This document shows positions 5,044 to 40,413 of a stretch of 64,000 bases of DNA, one piece after another (the stretch's first letter is position 1; every line of letters starts with the position of its first letter). The notes under the pieces were generated by a model that was not told the origin of the DNA, ran no database searches, and saw only the letters and a list, made by a program, of their open reading frames with translations. This DNA comes from an uncultured archaeon (GTDB lineage: Archaea > Thermoproteota > Bathyarchaeia > Bathyarchaeales > Bathycorpusculaceae). Where the stretch lies: NCBI GenBank assembly GCA_963782915.1, contig CAWALK010000001.1, positions 171,733 through 235,732 on the forward strand, in the 5' to 3' direction. Made by a program: the position numbers and the translations under genes.

Positions 5044-6388
5044 TTGAATAATATTGAATCAGAAATCACTACTTTCCTTTCAAATCTAATTCGGATTAAC
5101 ACCACTAATCCACCTGGAAATGAAACCGATGCAGCAAGCTTCATAGCGCAGTATCTAGCCAGAGACGGCTTCACATGTGAGGTCTTGGAGTCCGCACCGG
5201 GCAGAGGCAGCGTTATAACACGGCTAAAGGGTTCAGGAGAAAAACCAAACCTGCTCTTGCTCTCCCACTTAGACGTTGTTGCTGCAAATCCGGCGGAGTG
5301 GTCAGTTGACCCATTTGCGGGCACAGTTAAAGACGGCTACGTCTACGGACGAGGCGCATACGACATGAAAGGTATGCTCGCCGTAGAATTATTCACCCTA
5401 AAACTCCTGAAACAAAACAACATCCCCCTAAAAGGCGACATAGTCTTGGCTGCAACCGCTGATGAAGAGAAAGGTGGCGAAGAAGGCGCAGGATACATAC
5501 TGCGAAAGCACAAAGACAAAGTTTGGTGCCCATATGTACTAAACGAAGGCGGCGGATTAGCCATTCCACAAAAAAACGGCAACGTTTACCCAGTGCAAAC
5601 CGCAGAAAAAGGTATCCTCTGGTTCAAAATAAAAGCCAAAGGCACCCCTGGACACGGCTCAACACCGAACACCGCTGACAACGCAATTCTGCGAATAAAC
5701 AAAGTCATAGCCAAACTTGACAGTTATAAACCAGCAACGGTGTATGTGCCGACCCTAAAGGAATTCTTATCAGAAATCGCCAGAATAAACCCAGACCTCA
5801 AAGCAGACTTCACAAACTTGCTGAACAACTCCAAATAAAGCGAACGAAATACTCGACGAATTAGCAAAGAAAGACAAAGCCCTCGCAGAAGAAATCAGAC
5901 CCAGAACAAAAACCACCATAACACCAACCATTATCCGCGGCGGAATCAAAGAAAACATAATACCCTCCGAATGCGAAGCAACCTTCGATTGCCGAGTACT
6001 GCCCGGCCAAAGCGTAAACGACACACTTGAAACCATCAAAGGTTTGCTTAAAGATGTGGGCTATGACAAGTTAAGCTTCGAAATAATACAGATACACGAC
6101 GGCAACGAATCCACAACCAAAACACCCCTCTACAGTGCCATCACGGACGTTCTACGCGAAGTAGAGCCTAACTGCGGCGTAACTCCAGCGATGACAACAG
6201 GCGGCACCGATTCACGCTTCTTCAGAGAAACAGGCAGCATATGCTACGGTTTCCACCCAATGCGCCCAGATGAACCCAACGATTTACTGGAAAAACGCAT
6301 GCACGGCATCGATGAACGCATAACAATCGAGAATCTCGTTTGGGGCACAAGCGTCTTCTATGAAGCCGTTAAAAGATTCATGACTTAG
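5044..6388 (+). CDS. M20/M25/M40 family metallopeptidase, frameshifted near 5830
   Basis: SHLDVV, GRGAYDMKG, ADEEKGG, GGTDSRFF and MHGIDER motifs across two ORFs. Confidence 0.9.
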
Positions 6389-8022: not shown

Positions 8023-8418
8023 ATGGATTGCTCAAACTGTGGCGTATGCTGTACCGAAACAGAGATGCTGCTCTCAAAAAAAGACATCAAACGCTTAGAA
8101 GATAGAGGGTATAGCCAAAACCAGTTTGTACGCTATGATACACATGGATATGCCACGCTTAAGAATCGTGAGGGTTACTGCGTGTTCTATGACCTTACCA
8201 AGCGCCAATGCAGCGAATATGAAAATCGGCCGTCGGGTTGCAGAGTTTACCCCGTTATCGTTGATGAAGAGAAAGGGATCGTTTTAGATACTATCTGCGA
8301 GTCAAGAAATACCATTACTGAGCAGGAAAAACATCTTAAGGGCAAACGTGTAGTGCATCTTTTAGAAGTGATTGATGCTGAGGCGCTTGCGCGTCGCTCT
8401 GGAAAGTTGAAGGGTTAG
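8023..8418 (+). CDS. YkgJ-family cysteine-cluster protein
   Basis: CSNCGVCC...CVFY...CSEYENRPSGCRVYP. Confidence 0.9.
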   Translation: MDCSNCGVCCTETEMLLSKKDIKRLEDRGYSQNQFVRYDTHGYATLKNREGYCVFYDLTKRQCSEYENRPSGCRVYPVIVDEEKGIVLDTICESRNTITEQEKHLKGKRVVHLLEVIDAEALARRSGKLKG

Positions 8419-23994: not shown

Positions 23995-24071
23995 TGGGGC
24001 CGGGGCCGAGATTTGAACTCGGGCGAAAGGCTCCACAGGCCTCTATGCTGCCAAGCTACACCACCCCGGCC
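23995..24071 (-). tRNA. tRNA-His(GTG) with encoded G-1 and CCA
   Basis: G-GCCGGGG...GAGGC CT GTG GA GCCTT...GTTCAAATC...CCCCGGC C CCA cloverleaf. Confidence 0.96.
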
Positions 24072-33455: not shown

Positions 33456-34712
33456 TTGAAAATTGAAGTGCTCGGAGGAGCTAGAGAAGTAGGAGGCTCC
33501 TGCATATCAGTCGAAACCGACTCCGCAAAGGTCGCGCTAGACTACGGTACAAAACTCGAAGAAGAAATGAAAAAATTACCCAAAGATTTCGACGCCGTAG
33601 TAATCAGCCACGCCCACCTAGACCACACCGGCAGTCTCTTGAGCTTATGCAAAAATAACAGCCCAACAATAATCGGCTCAGACATCACACGCGAAGTCAC
33701 AGTAGACCTTCTCCATGACATGGTGAAAATCCAGAATGAGAAAGGCATCTTTGACTTCGACGACAGCACCGCTGAAAAGGTTGGCGCATGCTGGTGGAAC
33801 AGAGACTCAGTTGCTCTACCCGGCTTAAGCATAAAGTTGCAATCTGCCGGTCACGTTGCAGGCGCAAAAATCACCAGCATAGAATCAGAAAATAAAAGAA
33901 TCCTCTACACAGGCGACATCTGCATGCACGACACCGAAATCCTGCAGGGCTGCCGACTTGAAACACTCCCCAAAAAACCGGACGTACTAATCACTGAATC
34001 AACTTATGGCGGCAAAGTCAGGTTACCCAGAGAGGAACTGGTTAACCAATTCATGCAGCAACTCCACGTTACCATGAAACGGGGCGGAAACGTCTTGATT
34101 CCCACCTTTGCCTTCCACCGTAGCCAAGAAATGGCCAAGCGAATCGACAGTGCCATGCAAGCCGGAATACTGCCACGCTACAACGTGTACACAATCTCCA
34201 ATTTAGCCCACAGAATAAACGGCTACTTCAACAAAAACAAATTCCTATTCACAAAAGAAATCAAAGCGCAAAAGCAACCCTTTACATACCGCTACGTCAG
34301 GCACCTCTACAGAACCCAACAGATAGAATCACCCGCCATCGTCATCTGCACCTCAGGATTTGGCCACGCAGGCGCAAGCTTACGACTACTCACAGAGTGG
34401 GCAGAAAACAAAGACAACTCCATAATCTTAACCTCAGGATACCTCCCACCAGACAGCCCCCTAAAACAGGCCAAAGAGGAACACTTCTTCAAAACAGATG
34501 AAGGCTCCTTCGAGGTCAACGCCGAAGTAAAACAGATCGAACTCTCAGGACACGCCGACCAAACTGAACTGGTCCAGATGGTGAGCAAACTAAAGCCAAA
34601 ACGTACAGTGCTCGTCCACGGCGACCTCGAACAGGCAGAACTGCTTTCCGAGAAAATCGGCGAAATGACCGATGTGTGCATCCCAGAAAGGGATGACGTA
34701 ATAGACGTTTAA
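33456..34712 (+). CDS. Beta-CASP metallo-beta-lactamase ribonuclease (no KH domains)
   Basis: LGGAREVG, SHAHLDH, AGHVAG, YTGD, ESTYG, SGHAD and VHG motifs. Confidence 0.93.
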   Translation: MKIEVLGGAREVGGSCISVETDSAKVALDYGTKLEEEMKKLPKDFDAVVISHAHLDHTGSLLSLCKNNSPTIIGSDITREVTVDLLHDMVKIQNEKGIFDFDDSTAEKVGACWWNRDSVALPGLSIKLQSAGHVAGAKITSIESENKRILYTGDICMHDTEILQGCRLETLPKKPDVLITESTYGGKVRLPREELVNQFMQQLHVTMKRGGNVLIPTFAFHRSQEMAKRIDSAMQAGILPRYNVYTISNLAHRINGYFNKNKFLFTKEIKAQKQPFTYRYVRHLYRTQQIESPAIVICTSGFGHAGASLRLLTEWAENKDNSIILTSGYLPPDSPLKQAKEEHFFKTDEGSFEVNAEVKQIELSGHADQTELVQMVSKLKPKRTVLVHGDLEQAELLSEKIGEMTDVCIPERDDVIDV

Positions 34713-34924: not shown

Positions 34925-35161
34925 ATGACTCAAGAAAAACCAGTAACTATGCAATCAAAAGCTAACAAGAAAATGCCAGTCTTCACCTGTTCATGTGGCG
35001 CAAAGATACTGATTGTTCCCGATTTACGTGAGATGACTAAAGCGATAAAAGCTCATGAACTCGAACATAGAATGTTAACTGGCAAGCATATGTCAGAAGA
35101 TGCGATAGCGGAGCAGATCATTATGGTTTTAGGTGAGCATTTCAGGGGATCCGTTGCCTAG
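34925..35161 (+). CDS. Small putative zinc-binding protein
   Basis: CSCG...HELEH; 78 aa. Confidence 0.65.
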   Translation: MTQEKPVTMQSKANKKMPVFTCSCGAKILIVPDLREMTKAIKAHELEHRMLTGKHMSEDAIAEQIIMVLGEHFRGSVA

Positions 35162-35170
35162 TTTTTGTGT

Positions 35171-36442
35171 TTACCCTTTTTTGTATCTTAAAAGCGCTGC
35201 AAAGCCTCCCAGCGCCGTTAACTGGTCTTTTTCTTTTGAAGCAGACGAAATCACTTCAACAGCCGAATCTTTTTGCGCTGCCAAATCCTCAAGGGCATCC
35301 ACAATATCCCTCTCTCTAAACTCATAGGAGACGGCACCGCATTTTTCGCATGGCACCTTCGTCATTTCCTCTGCGGCTTTAGCTTTCGATTGGGTGATGG
35401 CTTTTTTTGGGTAGCCACAGTTTCTGCATACCGCAACTACCTCAACCACATCTGTGTCATCCGTTACCAGTGCGACTTGCACTTCTCCTCGGCTTAGCGC
35501 ATCTAAAACAGAGTCTAAACCATACGTAGCTAAACCATTCTGTTTAGCCAACTCCACTGAGAGTCGCTCGATGAGTTTTTTCTCTTCAGGCCCACACATA
35601 TTACTCAATAACTCGGTTGATTTGGCGTAAATCTCTCTAAGCGCCGCCTTATCTGCCGATTGAGTATCGACGACGTTTAGAAGCATGTTACTTAACTCGT
35701 AATGCAGGAATTCGCCCTTCAGAAAATCATTCTTTGTTTGCCCCGGGCCACCCGCTATCAAAACGTTAACGTGGTTTTCAAGAAAAGCCTTGGCTGCGTG
35801 TTCTGCGATTCTGTGGAAGAAGTAGGTGAGTTCCATGTCGCGTTCTCTCTCATATCGCCTCTGGCTTTGACCGCCCTTCCCCGTTTTCCCAGGAACCCCC
35901 GAGGAGATGGTTTCGATTGATTCTACCTGTTCGCCCCTGAGGAGCCCAAAGCTTGCCTGTTTAGCGTCTAGGGCGAGGACGCCGACGATTTTCGGGTCTC
36001 TTAGCATCTCTCTTAGCGGTTCTAAATGGAAATGGTCATCTGCAAAGTAGCGGTAAGCCGTGATTGGTTCGGGTGGGATTAACTCCTCAACTCCTAATGA
36101 CTCTTTTTCTGTTCCCTCAGCGGCGTAGGTTCCGGCGAACAGGGCTAATCCATTCTCTGAGATTTCCTTGTGCTGCTTAAGTTGCTGTACTACAATTTTT
36201 AAGGTATCTTGAAGCTGTTGCTTTTCCCTCTCAGATTCTGAGGTGGCACATTCAGATTCCTTCTTTATTGCGGCGATTACTTGCTCCAGTGCCGTTTTTG
36301 GTTGCAGGTATAGTGAGATGAAATCTTTGGTTTTGCTTTCCTTGTCTGAGAGGTATGCTATGCGTTTGCGGAGTTTATGCTGCTTAACGGAGTGGGTGGA
36401 TGCTATTTGACATGAATAAAAACGGGTATTTTCGGTTGTCAA
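35171..36442 (-). CDS. aRF1/eRF1 paralog with intact GGQ but degenerate N-domain decoding motifs
   Basis: ISLY, ENGLALFAG, PPEPI, GKGGQSQRRYER, zinc ribbon CRNC...CEKC and LGGFAALLRY; NIKS absent; GGTGA SD before TTG. Confidence 0.92.
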   Translation of the reverse strand: MTTENTRFYSCQIASTHSVKQHKLRKRIAYLSDKESKTKDFISLYLQPKTALEQVIAAIKKESECATSESEREKQQLQDTLKIVVQQLKQHKEISENGLALFAGTYAAEGTEKESLGVEELIPPEPITAYRYFADDHFHLEPLREMLRDPKIVGVLALDAKQASFGLLRGEQVESIETISSGVPGKTGKGGQSQRRYERERDMELTYFFHRIAEHAAKAFLENHVNVLIAGGPGQTKNDFLKGEFLHYELSNMLLNVVDTQSADKAALREIYAKSTELLSNMCGPEEKKLIERLSVELAKQNGLATYGLDSVLDALSRGEVQVALVTDDTDVVEVVAVCRNCGYPKKAITQSKAKAAEEMTKVPCEKCGAVSYEFRERDIVDALEDLAAQKDSAVEVISSASKEKDQLTALGGFAALLRYKKG

Positions 36443-36466
36443 AAATTTTCACCAAAATTAGTTTTA

Positions 36467-36552
36467 TGGTTCAGGCGGTTGATTCGAACCTACGAACCTC
36501 TGCAGGATAGGTCCTGAAGCCTACGCCTTTGACCTGGCTCGGCGACCCCTGC
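36467..36552 (-). tRNA. tRNA-Leu(CAG)-like gene with degenerate anticodon, T and acceptor stems (pseudo-tRNA or tRNA-like RNA)
   Basis: GCAGGGGTCGCCGAGCCAGGTCAAAGGCG-TAGGCTTCAGGACCTAT-CCTGCAGAGG-TTCGTAGGTTCGAATC-AACCGCCTGAACCA; D arm and variable arm are typical archaeal Leu; 3' strand mismatched. Confidence 0.8.
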
Positions 36553-36679
36553 ACACATCGTTTGCTCTATTAAAAATAATTCAGACTGATAAATATATGC
36601 CGTTTAGCATTCGGTATCTTCTCGGTTATTAAAGCTTAAATCGCTATCTCGCCAGCTATAATGGTAAGGATGCATTGTT

Positions 36680-37279
36680 ATGGCTCTTGGCTGGAAGGAT
36701 TGGAGTAAAAAAGACTTAATCTACGGCATAATTGTACCCGTCATCGTTGTTTTAGTAATCGTGGGTTTCTCAAAAATCCCCTCACTCGTCGGTTACACCT
36801 CCGATAGTGCTGGATTAGTAATCGGCATAACCATGATGCTCCTCGAGTTAACGCTTATCGTCGTGGTTCCGTTGATGCTTGGGTTAATCTGGAACAGCTG
36901 GGCAGGCGGCGCATCAGGCTTCATAATGGGTGCTTTCTATGCCCAGTACTGGTCCAGCAGCTTCCATGGCATCGCCGGTTCAGGCACAGTCCTAATCGCC
37001 TACATCTTAAGTGCAATGCTAATCGGTTACATGGCTGGCGCATTGAATAAGCGCTCGGAGGACTTCCGCAGAATGCTCATCTCAGGCGTAATCGCAACAA
37101 CAATCGGCGGTATAATGCTCTTTGGCATCTTTCAGCTCTCAACAGCCAACGTGGTAACTGGTATAGATGGGTTGGCATTGACACTGCTGCCACGGATAGC
37201 CTGCGGAGCAATAATTGCTGCTATCGCGAAGGTGTTCCACTGGTACGGAATGGGCATTAAAGAAAAAACAAATCAATAA
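36680..37279 (+). CDS. Six-TM membrane protein (ECF S-component-like size and topology)
   Basis: 199 aa, about six hydrophobic helices, WAGGASGFIMG. Confidence 0.7.
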   Translation: MALGWKDWSKKDLIYGIIVPVIVVLVIVGFSKIPSLVGYTSDSAGLVIGITMMLLELTLIVVVPLMLGLIWNSWAGGASGFIMGAFYAQYWSSSFHGIAGSGTVLIAYILSAMLIGYMAGALNKRSEDFRRMLISGVIATTIGGIMLFGIFQLSTANVVTGIDGLALTLLPRIACGAIIAAIAKVFHWYGMGIKEKTNQ

Positions 37280-37473: not shown

Positions 37474-37873
37474 ACTGTCTAAGAGTTCCTGTACTCTTCG
37501 TTCGATGTCATCCCTGATTTCCCGTACTTTCTCGACTGGTTTGCCTTTGGGGTCTTCAAGCGCCCAATCCACCACTGGTACAAAAAACGGGCCGGGACAA
37601 ATACCCTGAGCACTGCAACCCATGGTAACCACCAAATCCGCATCCGCTCGCCATCTTGGCAGTAATCAACTTGGGTTTATTTGCGGAAATGTCGATGCCC
37701 CGCTCTTTCATAGCTTCAACCACGACGGGGTTAACTGTTTCTGCGGGTTTGTTGCCAGCGCTGGATGCATTGATTTTGCCTTCTCCGTATTTTTTGGCAA
37801 ACGCTTCGGCCATCTGGCTTCTGCCAGCATTTTCTATGCAGACAAAAAGGATTTTCTTCAATATAATCGCCAT
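37465..37873 (-). CDS. arsC: Arsenate reductase (LMW-PTPase fold), frameshifted
   Basis: LFVCIENAGRSQMAE; VVTMGC, CP and LEDPKGK in the second frame. Confidence 0.88.
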
Positions 37874-37874
37874 A

Positions 37875-38160
37875 TTACTCTTTTGTTTTTTTAAGTTTAT
37901 CAATTATTGTCTGCGTTTGCTCTTCGTCTGGATGCGATATGGCTCCTGCTGGGCAGATGTCTTCGCATCCTCTGCAGAATACGACACATCGGTTGGGGTT
38001 GACTATGGTTTTTTTCTTGCCGTCGATAGTTTCTGTTTTGAAGGCTTTCATGTGACAGAATTCTACGCATTTGCCGCATGTTGTGCATTTGGTGTAGTCT
38101 ATTTTTGGGTCCCAGGGAATTTTGCTGCGGGGGATTCCTTGGTATTCTTTTTCTGACCAT
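37875..38160 (-). CDS. 2x[4Fe-4S] ferredoxin, frameshift just after the start codon
   Basis: Hand-translated EKEYQGIPRSKIPWDPKIDYTKCTTCGKCVEFC...RCVVFCRGCEDICPAGAI. Confidence 0.88.
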
Positions 38161-38238
38161 TGGGGTTTCTCCTCTTATCGTTGTTTAATAATTAAAATAT
38201 AACAACTTTTAAATATTGTTATAGATAATCTGGGTTAC

Positions 38239-38566
38239 ATGCCCAATAACCCGGAAAACAGCAACCGATTCAAATCAACAGTTTTCCACGCCCTCTCCGA
38301 CCCAATACGACTCGAAATAGTATCCTACTTACGCGACGGCGAAAAATGCGTCTGCGAAATCGTCCCCCACCTCAACCTAATCCAGCCACTCGTCTCTCGC
38401 CACCTAAAAATCCTAAAGGACGCAGGAATAGTACAGATGCCGAAAAGACGGAACCAAACGCATGTACTCCATCGTTGACCAAAAAATATTCAAAATCATT
38501 GATGCATTAACCCCTGAACTGGTCGGTGCCCTTACAAAAGAGGCTTACCAAAACGCATTCTGCTAG
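38239..38566 (+). CDS. arsR: ArsR/SmtB repressor, frameshift near 38435
   Basis: FHALSDPIRLEI, EKCVCEI and VSRHLKILKDAG. Confidence 0.9.
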
Positions 38567-38578
38567 GCGAAGTGTATC

Positions 38579-39655
38579 TTGGAAACAAAACAAGAGCACG
38601 TAAAGAAAGAATTATCCTTAGGACTTTGGGAAAAGTACCTGACCGTCTGGATAGCAATCTGCATAGTTGTCGGTTTACTCGTTGGAAGATTTATTCCTGA
38701 ATTTGGGCATTTTATGGATTCATTAAAGTATGCCCAATTATCCATACCGATTGGCATATTGCTTTTCTTCATGATGTATCCAACAGTGGTCGGAATACAG
38801 TTTGGCGACGTAAAAAAAGCGGTTAAAAATCCTAAACCCCTTATTGTAACTGTAATTGCTAACTGGCTAATTGCTCCGCCGCTCATGACGCTTTTGGCAA
38901 ACGTCTTTTTCCCTGGAAACCCACAATTCATGGCAGGTCTAATCCTTCTGGGCTTGTCCCCTTGTACAGCGATGGTTATGTGGTGGATGTTTCTTGCCCG
39001 AGGCGACATGGCACAAGGACTCATTAACACAGCCGTCAACGCTTTGCTCATGCTTGCGCTCTATGCGCCTTTGGCAGCCATCTACTTGGGCGTAAGCAGC
39101 ATACCTGTTCCATGGGACTTAATCGCCATCAGTGTTCTTGTGTTCATTGCACTTCCAGTTGGAGCAGGGGCGTTGTCTCGGCGGATAGTTATAAAAAAGA
39201 AAGGGGTTGAATGGTTCAAAGACAAATTCAATCCAGTGGTGGGCAAAATCTCCATCGTTGCACTGTTGTTGACTTTGATTGTGCTGTTCTCGTTTGAGGG
39301 GCAAACAATCCTCAATAACCCGCTTCTGGTCGGCTACCTTGCAGTACCCCTCCTGATACACTACGCCATAATGATAGCATGGACCTATCCCCTCGGCTAC
39401 TTCTTAGGCTGGAAATACGAGAGCGCCATCGACACAACCATCATCGGTGCCAGCAGCCATTTTGAAGTAGCCATTGCAGTAGCAGTCACACTCTTTGGCA
39501 TAGGGTCGGGTGCAGCATTAGCTACAGTTATTGGTCCACTCTTAGAGGTGCCGCTTATGCTATTGCTGGTAAAGCTTGGTTTACGCACAAGAAAGCACTT
39601 CCCAAGAAAGAAAAAGGGCACCATAACAAATCAGAATAATGAGGAAGCAAAATGA
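38579..39655 (+). CDS. acr3: Acr3 arsenite efflux transporter
   Basis: [30 protein letters not shown] and GPLLEVP motifs. Confidence 0.95.
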
Positions 39656-40413
39656 AAAACACAAATGATGAAGTAAAGAAAACAGTCAAAAAAGCATACT
39701 CCAAAATAGCCACCAACAGCAACTCCTGCTGCTGTCAATGCGGCTGCGGAACCCTCGATGAGAAAACCAAAAAGAAAGTATCCAAAAGCATAGGGTACTC
39801 CGAAGAAGAAATCAACGCCGTCCCCGAAGCTAACCTTGGGCTTGGCTGCGGCAACCCCACCGCTTTTAGCAGCATCAAAGAAGGCAACACGGTGCTTGAT
39901 CTTGGAAGCGGCGCAGGTTTTGACTGTTTCTTAGCCTCCAAAAAAGTGGGCAAAACAGGCAAAGTCATCGGCTTAGACATGACCGAGGAAATGATAGCTA
40001 AAGCCAGAAGCCTCGCCAAAGAACACGGCTACACAAACGTTGAATTCAGGTTAGGTGACATCGAAAAGATGCCCCTTGAGGATGGCTCCGTTGATGTCAT
40101 CATCAGTAACTGCGTCATCAACCTCGCACCAAACAAGTCCGCTGTCTTCAAAGAAGCCTACCGCGTGCTCAAGAGCGGCGGCAAAATGTATGTCTCAGAC
40201 ATAGTTTTGCTTGGGAAGCTAACAGAGGAGCAATTGAATGATGAGGACCTGCTTTCCGGCTGTGTTGCTGGTGCCCTGCAAAAAGACGACTACATCGGCA
40301 AGATAGAGCAGGCAGGCTTTAAAGTCAACATTCTGGGCGAGGATAAGGAAATCAGCAAAACCCAGTACAGTGGGTTAGCGCTTGAGAGCATAAAAATCGA
40401 GGCTCAAAAATAG
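39652..40413 (+). CDS. arsM: Arsenite S-adenosylmethionine methyltransferase
   Basis: [27 protein letters not shown] and GCVAGA motifs. Confidence 0.95.

Follow-up and report, generated by a model that had tools for sequence, protein, structure and literature searches.

A decayed tRNA-Leu(CAG) gene beside a codon-blind relative of aRF1 in Bathyarchaeia, probably neighbours by genome history

When a tRNA-like sequence stands immediately upstream of a gene for a release factor-like protein, are the two parts of one ribosome-rescue machine, or did they become neighbours for other reasons? The question is raised by a 64,000-nucleotide stretch of DNA from an uncultured archaeon of the Bathyarchaeia (assembly GCA_963782915.1, contig CAWALK010000001.1, positions 171,733 to 235,732), hereafter called the window, in which a gene resembling that of the archaeal class-1 release factor aRF1 follows a degenerate tRNA-Leu sequence. 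An earlier note on this DNA had proposed a co-transcribed unit made of a tRNA-like RNA and a codon-independent peptidyl-tRNA hydrolase, with a beta-CASP RNase beside it. To our knowledge, archaea have no tmRNA, and among codon-independent factors of the A site only Pelota, which leaves the peptide unreleased, is established in them. Our analysis leads, with moderate confidence, to another picture: a tRNA-Leu(CAG) pseudogene lies beside a codon-blind aRF1 paralogue, the association is probably linked to integration, and the protein would act in the ribosomal A site. The elements in question are the following.

36467 to 36552, minus strand: decayed tRNA-Leu(CAG) gene, 86 nt, CCA encoded, recognised by homology to the intact genes of relatives.
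36443 to 36466, minus strand: spacer of 24 nt, with GGTGA at 36449-36453, between the tRNA remnant and the open reading frame (ORF).
35171 to 36442, minus strand: aRF1-like gene, an intact ORF of 1272 nt encoding 423 amino acids (aa), with a TTG start at 36440-36442.

Comparisons were made with the loci of the best 80 of 301 relatives, taken from species-representative genomes and designated below by L numbers. Against the tRNA-Leu(CAG) gene of L005, the remnant is 92% identical over 73 nt (blastn-short, E 4.9e-21), so that the resemblance is due to homology and not to chance. The tRNA-Leu-like sequence reported in the earlier note, on the same strand and with its CCA end exactly 24 nt before the TTG start codon, is therefore real. 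It was also rightly called degenerate: ARAGORN detected no tRNA at 36467-36552, with or without introns, and Rfam none at E<=10 in the 451 nt between 36300 and 36750, whereas the intact L005 homologue reached 55.3 bits on the Rfam tRNA model (RF00005, gathering score 29 bits) in a search of equal size. The minimum-energy fold of the remnant is not a cloverleaf. Compared to the intact homologues, it carries two deletions and four substitutions, none of them compensatory. The anticodon stem has lost 1 nt from its 3′ strand. In the T stem, the 5′ strand shows a G>A change, and the 3′ strand both a deletion and a C>A change; the remaining two substitutions fall in the 3′ acceptor strand. An anticodon loop of 8 nt (CUUCAGGA), which might read a quadruplet or UCA, was considered and rejected, as the alignment indicates a 1-nt deletion in the stem and an unchanged CAG loop. 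The only tRNA found by ARAGORN in the window is a tRNA-His(GTG), at 23995-24070 on the minus strand.

In L001, whose protein is 86% identical to that of the window, only a stub of the T-arm and 3′ end is left together with the Shine-Dalgarno (SD) spacer, and the rest is unalignable. Since the window and L001 show two different states of decay, we take the 86-nt element, on these alignments, for a tRNA-Leu(CAG) pseudogene, and not for a conserved, dedicated tRNA-like RNA. All six lesions lie within the 3′ 45 nt of the remnant, the 5′ 42 nt being identical to L003, and this lesion-bearing 3′ part is the one that is repeated as an att-like sequence in relatives (see below). It may be that the 3′ half was swapped rather than mutated in place.

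Could these lesions be errors of assembly or sequencing, the window holding in fact a functional tRNA-Leu(CAG)? Two of the six are single-base deletions, a common type of long-read error, and the perfect 5′ part would also fit. However, the other four are substitutions, the deletions fall outside homopolymer runs, the adjacent 1272-nt ORF is intact, and L001 decays independently, and further, at the same site. We consider this explanation very unlikely.

How far does the association with a tRNA reach among relatives? The 80 loci comprise 16 with the NIKS-bearing canonical aRF1 of Nitrososphaerota and 64 with a non-NIKS gene (63 of the 64 read through, L056 excepted). As the earlier note had suggested, orthologues were inspected for a linked upstream tRNA. 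In L005, L007 and L009, the orthologue is preceded by an intact tRNA-Leu(CAG) that ends 24 to 25 nt before it; in L003 the tRNA occupies the same place, with a 26-nt insert in the region of the anticodon stem, and in L010 it is likewise upstream, cut by the contig end. A tRNA-Leu(CAG) was thus found directly upstream in 5 of the 64 non-NIKS loci. The spacer of 24 to 25 nt with its GGTGA is also present in L003, L005, L007 and L009. Three further loci show a trace or a more distant copy: the stub of L001, a tRNA-Leu(CAG) 1,205 nt away in L054, and a 31-nt T-arm-like fragment 91 nt upstream in L080. No upstream tRNA was found by ARAGORN, nor by blastn-short with the L005 tRNA, in the remaining 56 loci. 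Together with the window, the tRNA carriers form one subclade. Concerning L003 itself (L003:1405-1518), the insert sits on the 5′ side of the anticodon stem, perhaps as a non-canonical intron; without its intron mode ARAGORN overlooks this tRNA, and with it mis-types the gene as tRNA-Pro(cgg).

These results bear directly on the possibility of a dedicated two-component rescue unit, in which the tRNA-like RNA and the codon-blind aRF1 would be co-transcribed and the beta-CASP RNase would be an accessory. The common strand, the 24-nt spacer with its SD sequence and without room for a separate promoter, the arrangement kept in several relatives and the retention of a promoter box (described below) all speak for it. 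Against it, the partner is in relatives a normal tRNA-Leu(CAG), scoring 55.3 bits in L005; it is absent directly upstream in 56 of the 64 non-NIKS loci; and the window and L001 copies decay differently. The other neighbours do not form a unit either. Clustering of flank ORFs over the 64 non-NIKS loci gave no partner common to more than 7 loci, and the beta-CASP gene adjoins the aRF1-like gene in 4 of the 80 loci only (L001, L008, L012 and L052). On both counts there is no conserved module, and the beta-CASP gene is, as far as its distribution tells, a neighbour and no part of a conserved unit. The three largest clusters of flank ORFs (35, 32 and 24 loci) were rejected as partners, being antisense shadows of the aRF1-like gene itself. 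A two-component unit is thus highly improbable, and a tRNA-like RNA as functional partner finds no support in what are ordinary tRNA-Leu(CAG) genes, limited to one subclade and decaying in two ways. We favour instead, with a confidence somewhat better than even, that the tRNA and the aRF1-like gene are neighbours by genome history and not the two parts of a rescue machine.

What history could have brought them together? In L003, L005, L007, L009 and L010, the 3′ half of the upstream tRNA recurs as a direct repeat about 30 nt after the stop codon of the aRF1-like gene. The repeat is 37 nt long and 100% identical in L005 (L005:3927-3963 and 5298-5334, spacing 1371 nt), and 52 nt long and 87% identical in L003 (L003:1468-1519 and 2842-2893, spacing 1374 nt); in both, it starts in the anticodon loop. 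L009 has three copies of 32 nt (L009:3945-3976, 5298-5329 and 8286-8317), the third of which lies beyond an islet of ABC-transporter and TetR genes and closes this islet. Spacings of the repeats that bracket the aRF1-like gene range between 1353 and 1374 nt in the relatives. Site-specific integration into a tRNA gene typically leaves behind a complete tRNA and a displaced 3′ half, and integrases use att sites in the 3′ half of tRNAs. In one subclade, the gene sits in a stretch of about 1.37 kb with a complete tRNA-Leu(CAG) at one end and its 3′ half, directly repeated, at the other, and the bracketing repeats would be the signature of such an integration. The tRNA body would have decayed later in the lineage of the window, where the promoter box was kept along with the 3′ end and the SD spacer. 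The box is the following.

36585 to 36595, minus strand: promoter-like AT-rich box TATTTATCAGT, presumably TATA-like, 33-43 nt upstream of the 5′ end of the tRNA.

The same TATTTATCAGT, or its variant TATTTATTCAGT, is present upstream of the intact tRNA-Leu(CAG) in L003, L005, L007, L009 and L054. A separate archaeal promoter would not fit into the 24-nt spacer. Given this short spacer, the lack of a T-run in relatives, and the retained box, the aRF1-like gene is probably transcribed from the tRNA promoter. Promoter sharing would explain why promoter, 3′ end and spacer survive while the tRNA body decays. What remains in the window would then be the mark of an old site of integration or of promoter sharing.

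Several observations weigh against this history. The 20 flank ORFs that lie no more than 4 kb from these repeats (L003, L005, L007, L009 and L010) gave no match to an integrase family of Pfam, so that the integration is read from the repeats themselves. The downstream tRNA repeat was not found in the window. Moreover, the window and L001 share their downstream beta-CASP gene with L008, L012 and L052, all without an upstream tRNA, and a simple history with a single cassette is for this reason insufficient. Finally, the composition of the spacer has to be considered with regard to the putative co-transcription. The earlier note had described it as holding a GGTGA SD, which is indeed present at 36449-36453, and no long T-tract; the second point is borderline, as the spacer of the window contains runs of T4 and T5, the T5 run overlapping the TTG start codon.

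We now turn to the protein. Its start call at TTG, 6 nt 3′ of the SD-like GGTGA, is supported by homologues of the same length, which begin at the equivalent Met. Pfam domains eRF1_1, eRF1_2 and eRF1_3 are all matched (E 3e-13 to 4e-30), the aRF1 equivalog model of NCBIfam, TIGR03676, is passed with 342.1 bits for a cut-off of 234.7, and the best solved relative is the aRF1 4af1_A (E 3.9e-54, residues 20-423). The three-domain aRF1 fold with a catalytic GGQ loop, kept as GKGGQSQRRYER, had thus been correctly described. So had the replacement of the decoding motifs: both the residue alignment with 4af1_A and the family alignment place KTKD at the position of the GTS loop, TSES (within ECATSES) at that of NIKS, and YFADDHF at that of YxCxxxF. 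The C-terminal motif GGFAALLRY is kept. Domain C holds a zinc ribbon of four Cys (C339, C342, C365 and C368); it is real, but the same four residues are found in 11 of the 11 canonical aRF1s checked, and the ribbon is therefore not a distinctive feature of the window protein. More particular to the family is a motif near the N-terminus.

Residues 6-26, 36365 to 36427, minus strand: family-specific N-terminal motif HF[YH]xCQ, then SVKQHKLRK; RFYSCQ in the window copy.

In a search of cluster representatives, the family appeared as one full-length cluster, the next full-length matches being canonical aRF1s. NIKS was found in none of the 120 best homologues of the window protein (59-96% identity). 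Family statistics were drawn from 161 distinct aligned members. The loop equivalent to NIKS is hypervariable throughout, and not one of the 161 retains the Cys of YxCxxxF, which is replaced by V (120), I (28), A (7), T (3), M (2) or L (1). The Thr of GTS, a K in the window protein, is K, M or R in 143 of the 161. In sharp contrast with these losses, the GG of the GGQ loop is present in 161 of 161, and the residues flanking it (K, S, Q, R, R, Y, E and R, with SQRRYER) are invariant or nearly so, as is LLRY within the conserved C-terminal GG[FV]AALLRY. The Cys of HF[YH]xCQ is found in 140 of 141 ungapped family sequences, and the motif is absent from all 11 canonical aRF1 sequences compared. We conclude from these alignments that the family has lost all three motifs by which stop codons are read, while the three-domain body, the GG loop and the GTPase-binding end are strongly constrained.

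The catalytic Gln does not follow the GG. The third residue of the loop is Q in 92 members; the others have S (59), E (5), M (3), W (1) or A (1), the Gln being gone in 69 of 161 (43%). On a tree of 60 members, this residue changes at least 5 times; all basal branches and the 9-member clade of the window carry GGQ, and one clade holds S, A, E and Q, with codons that can be read as a path of single-nucleotide steps. These codon-blind aRF1 relatives form a large conserved family of soil and peat Bathyarchaeia, which is apparently undescribed: no description of it was found in a search of the openly accessible main texts.

Three side observations were made on aRF1 sequences in the course of this work. 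Other aRF1 cluster representatives, most of which keep NIKS, have GGW, GGF, GGM, GGA, GGS or GGE (P0141, P0178, P0181, P0185, P0220, P0269, P0196, P0241, P0252, P0257 and P0152); loss of the catalytic Gln in aRF1 copies may thus be wider than the codon-blind family of Bathyarchaeia. Many representatives of 538-1452 aa (P0124, P0126, P0131, P0143, P0150 and others) align with the query in two segments, interrupted at query residue 192/193, precisely the GGQ site, and may carry inteins inserted in the GGQ loop. Finally, the aRF1-like gene is split over two or three frames in L060, L071 and L080, which could be due to frameshifts, pseudogenes or assembly indels.

Is the protein an additional aRF1, or the release factor of its host? 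The P0134 family has GTASNIKS, GGQ and YRCDARF, and is thus a separate, canonical aRF1 family; 9 of the 11 listed entries that bear an NCBI organism name are labelled Bathyarchaeia. A careful maximum-likelihood tree of 50 sequences grouped the NIKS-less clade with a support of 100/100, and placed it as sister to a canonical subclade of Nitrososphaerales (98/94). The two together are nested in the Nitrososphaerota clade (100/100), and the canonical aRF1 clade of Bathyarchaeia stands apart (100/100). A single group of the Nitrososphaerota sequences without the NIKS-less family was kept in only 4% of the bootstrap replicates. At 0.50, the family's stem branch compares with 0.47-0.50 for neighbouring clades. 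One metagenome-assembled genome (MAG) holds both L059, the most basal NIKS-less copy, and L069, a canonical one; their GC contents are 0.63 and 0.58, for a median of 0.44 in Bathyarchaeia loci. Three MAGs have two NIKS-less copies on different contigs (L017 and L021, L015 and L032, L039 and L051), which could reflect a true duplication or bins of mixed strains. The 55 ORFs of the window make use of every stop codon (TAA 32, TAG 12, TGA 11).

Taken together, the tree, the canonical family with its NCBI labels, the MAG with L059 and L069, the MAGs with double copies and the stop usage make the family, as read from sequences, a paralogue existing beside a canonical aRF1. On the same evidence, the family is probably a xenologue derived from an aRF1 of Nitrososphaerota type. 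It has to be set against this that a tblastn search of the 64-kb window revealed no canonical aRF1; tblastn with canonical aRF1 gave no second aRF1 in any flank of the 80 loci.

The lack of another aRF1 in the window would also suit a working, perhaps the only, release factor that reads stop codons by a changed mechanism, as would the passing of the TIGR03676 equivalog (342 versus 234.7) and the stem branch, which is not extreme. But a hypervariable loop in place of NIKS offers no consistent reading head, GGQ is lost in 43% of the members, and up to two NIKS-less copies occur per MAG. In addition, a canonical family labelled Bathyarchaeia exists and all three stops are in use. We regard it as very unlikely that the protein is a release factor of this kind, and keep to the reading of an additional, codon-blind copy.

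What might then be the role of this copy? The C-terminal motif of aRF1 binds aEF1-alpha, and release factors whose Gln is replaced by small residues keep part of their activity. Judging from its motifs, the protein is probably a stop-codon-independent A-site factor, acting either in rescue and release or in Balon-like hibernation. Delivery to the ribosomal A site would be ensured by aEF1-alpha, and no stop codon would be read. Members bearing GGQ, such as the window copy, would release the peptide from stalled or non-stop ribosomes; the main alternative is a non-catalytic role by occupation of the A site.

Hydrolysis is favoured by the invariant GG loop and by the Gln kept in the basal members and in the window copy. 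One point goes the other way: as the Gln has been lost in 69 of 161 members, with at least 5 changes, hydrolysis is disfavoured as the conserved function of the family. The AlphaFold2 model of the window protein, built from 18 sequences, is too poor for conclusions: its mean predicted local distance difference test (pLDDT) is 63.4, its predicted template modelling score (pTM) is 0.37, and pLDDT falls below 50 at the N-terminus and below 40 in the HF[YH]xCQ region. Of the codon-independent peptidyl-tRNA hydrolase proposed in the earlier note, codon independence thus agrees with the loss of the decoding motifs across the family, whereas peptidyl-tRNA hydrolysis is weakened as the function of the family.

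A purely non-catalytic occupant of the A site, either a Balon-like hibernation factor or a Pelota-like splitting factor, would keep the GG loop for its fit in the peptidyl-transferase centre. The drift of the lost Gln through S, A, E and Q fits such a role, and so does the loss of the decoding motifs. There are precedents in Balon and in a putative archaeal Balon lacking NIKS and GGQ, according to the accessible part of PMC13324472, and NCBIfam names the eRF1-like families of Rv2629 and MSMEG_1130 hibernation factors. However, GG and its basic flank are invariant or nearly so, whereas Pelota (PMC2613156) and the reported Balon-like proteins are wholly without the motif. The basal members and the 9-member clade of the window all have GGQ. 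The hibernation models of NCBIfam are matched far below their cut-offs (NF052289, 38.4 versus 320; NF052288, 26.4 versus 480), and the archaeal Balon-like proteins named in the part of PMC13324472 at hand come from Methanosarcinia, Syntropharchaeia and Thermoplasmatota, not from Bathyarchaeia. We view this non-catalytic role as rather unlikely for the family, yet deserving serious attention.

A more elaborate scenario, tentatively put forward, would combine both activities. A stop-codon-blind aRF1 would have originated within the aRF1 of Nitrososphaerota and reached hundreds of species of soil Bathyarchaeia, travelling in one subclade as a single-gene cassette of about 1.37 kb in tRNA-Leu(CAG). 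It would be the archaeal counterpart of ArfB/ICT1, a codon-independent peptidyl-tRNA hydrolase delivered by aEF1-alpha, with HF[YH]xCQ replacing codon reading as sensor, and its GGS, GGE and GGA members would be shifting to a Balon-like, non-hydrolytic role. We hold this complete scenario to be possible, but short of an even chance.

The surroundings of the two elements in the window can be described briefly.

33456 to 34712, plus strand: gene for a beta-CASP metallo-beta-lactamase of RNase-like type, 418 aa, convergent (Pfam Beta-Casp, RMMBL and Lactamase_B).
34925 to 35161, plus strand: ORF of 78 aa with a CxC motif, between the beta-CASP gene and the aRF1-like gene.
36680 to 37279, plus strand: predicted membrane protein of 199 aa, divergent from the tRNA remnant.

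The convergent beta-CASP RNase of the earlier note was found as announced, with the 78-aa ORF in between; its protein scores 185 bits on the aCPSF1 model TIGR03675, for a cut-off of 580. Neither the 78-aa ORF nor the 199-aa membrane protein has a match in Pfam or NCBIfam, and the latter has no homologue among ORFs of at least 90 aa in the 80 loci. Beyond the remnant, at 37556-40413, lies an arsenic-resistance-like cluster comprising a low-molecular-weight phosphatase (ArsC-type fold), an ArsR-family helix-turn-helix protein, an SBF/ACR3-type transporter and an S-adenosylmethionine methyltransferase.

These observations matter in three respects. The codon-blind aRF1 paralogue is a candidate for a release-type rescue factor, or for a hibernation factor, in archaea. 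The natural series Q, S, A and E at GGQ is a ready-made mutational series on the role of the Gln. Lastly, integration and promoter sharing can leave behind a tRNA-like sequence next to a gene for translation, which calls for caution when such pairs are met.

How does the locus compare with known systems? As in elements integrated into tRNA genes, the loci of the relatives have a complete tRNA at one end and, at the other, its 3′ half repeated directly from the anticodon loop onwards; the insert is different here in that it measures only about 1.37 kb and has a single cargo gene. Compared to classical aRF1, the protein shares eRF1_1, eRF1_2 and eRF1_3, a score above the equivalog cut-off, the GG loop, the four-Cys insert of domain C and the C-terminal LLRY. 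It differs in that its family is without GTS, NIKS and YxCxxxF, has an optional Gln in GGQ, and has HF[YH]xCQ added. ArfB/ICT1 has a fold of bacterial RF type, unrelated to aRF1. The likeness with this protein is one of functional analogy only, that of a GGQ-type factor acting without a stop codon, as far as the accessible part of PMC6514570 describes it; the same part of this survey of the release-factor superfamily makes no mention of a codon-blind archaeal family.

Two aRF1 copies occur in 4.3% of sampled archaeal genomes, for example as aRF1-2 in Methanosarcina, in the accessible part of PMC12626013. Such second copies are treated there as lineage-specific duplicates, and loss of decoding motifs is not described in that part, in difference from the present family.

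The resemblance to Pelota/Dom34 lies in being an eRF1-superfamily paralogue without stop-codon motifs, codon-independent in the A site. This description of Pelota comes from the accessible part of PMC2613156, in which GTS, NIKS and YxCxxxF are near-universal motifs of a/eRF1, the last two being missing from Dom34. The window protein scores 68.5 bits on the Pelota model TIGR00111, whose cut-off is 177.65. In contrast to the codon-blind family, which branches inside classical aRF1, Pelota is entirely without the GGQ minidomain and has another N domain.

Balon is the last of these systems. In the accessible text of PMC13324472, the bacterial protein is an mRNA-independent hibernation factor, and the putative archaeal Balons are aeRF1 homologues of Methanosarcinia, Syntropharchaeia and Thermoplasmatota, without NIKS and GGQ, always found beside a canonical aeRF1. 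To be an aeRF1 homologue without NIKS is what the codon-blind family has in common with them. Archaeal Balon, as presented in that text, is however a lineage of its own that lacks GGQ, whereas the codon-blind family keeps the GG loop, belongs to Bathyarchaeia and is probably of Nitrososphaerota-type origin.

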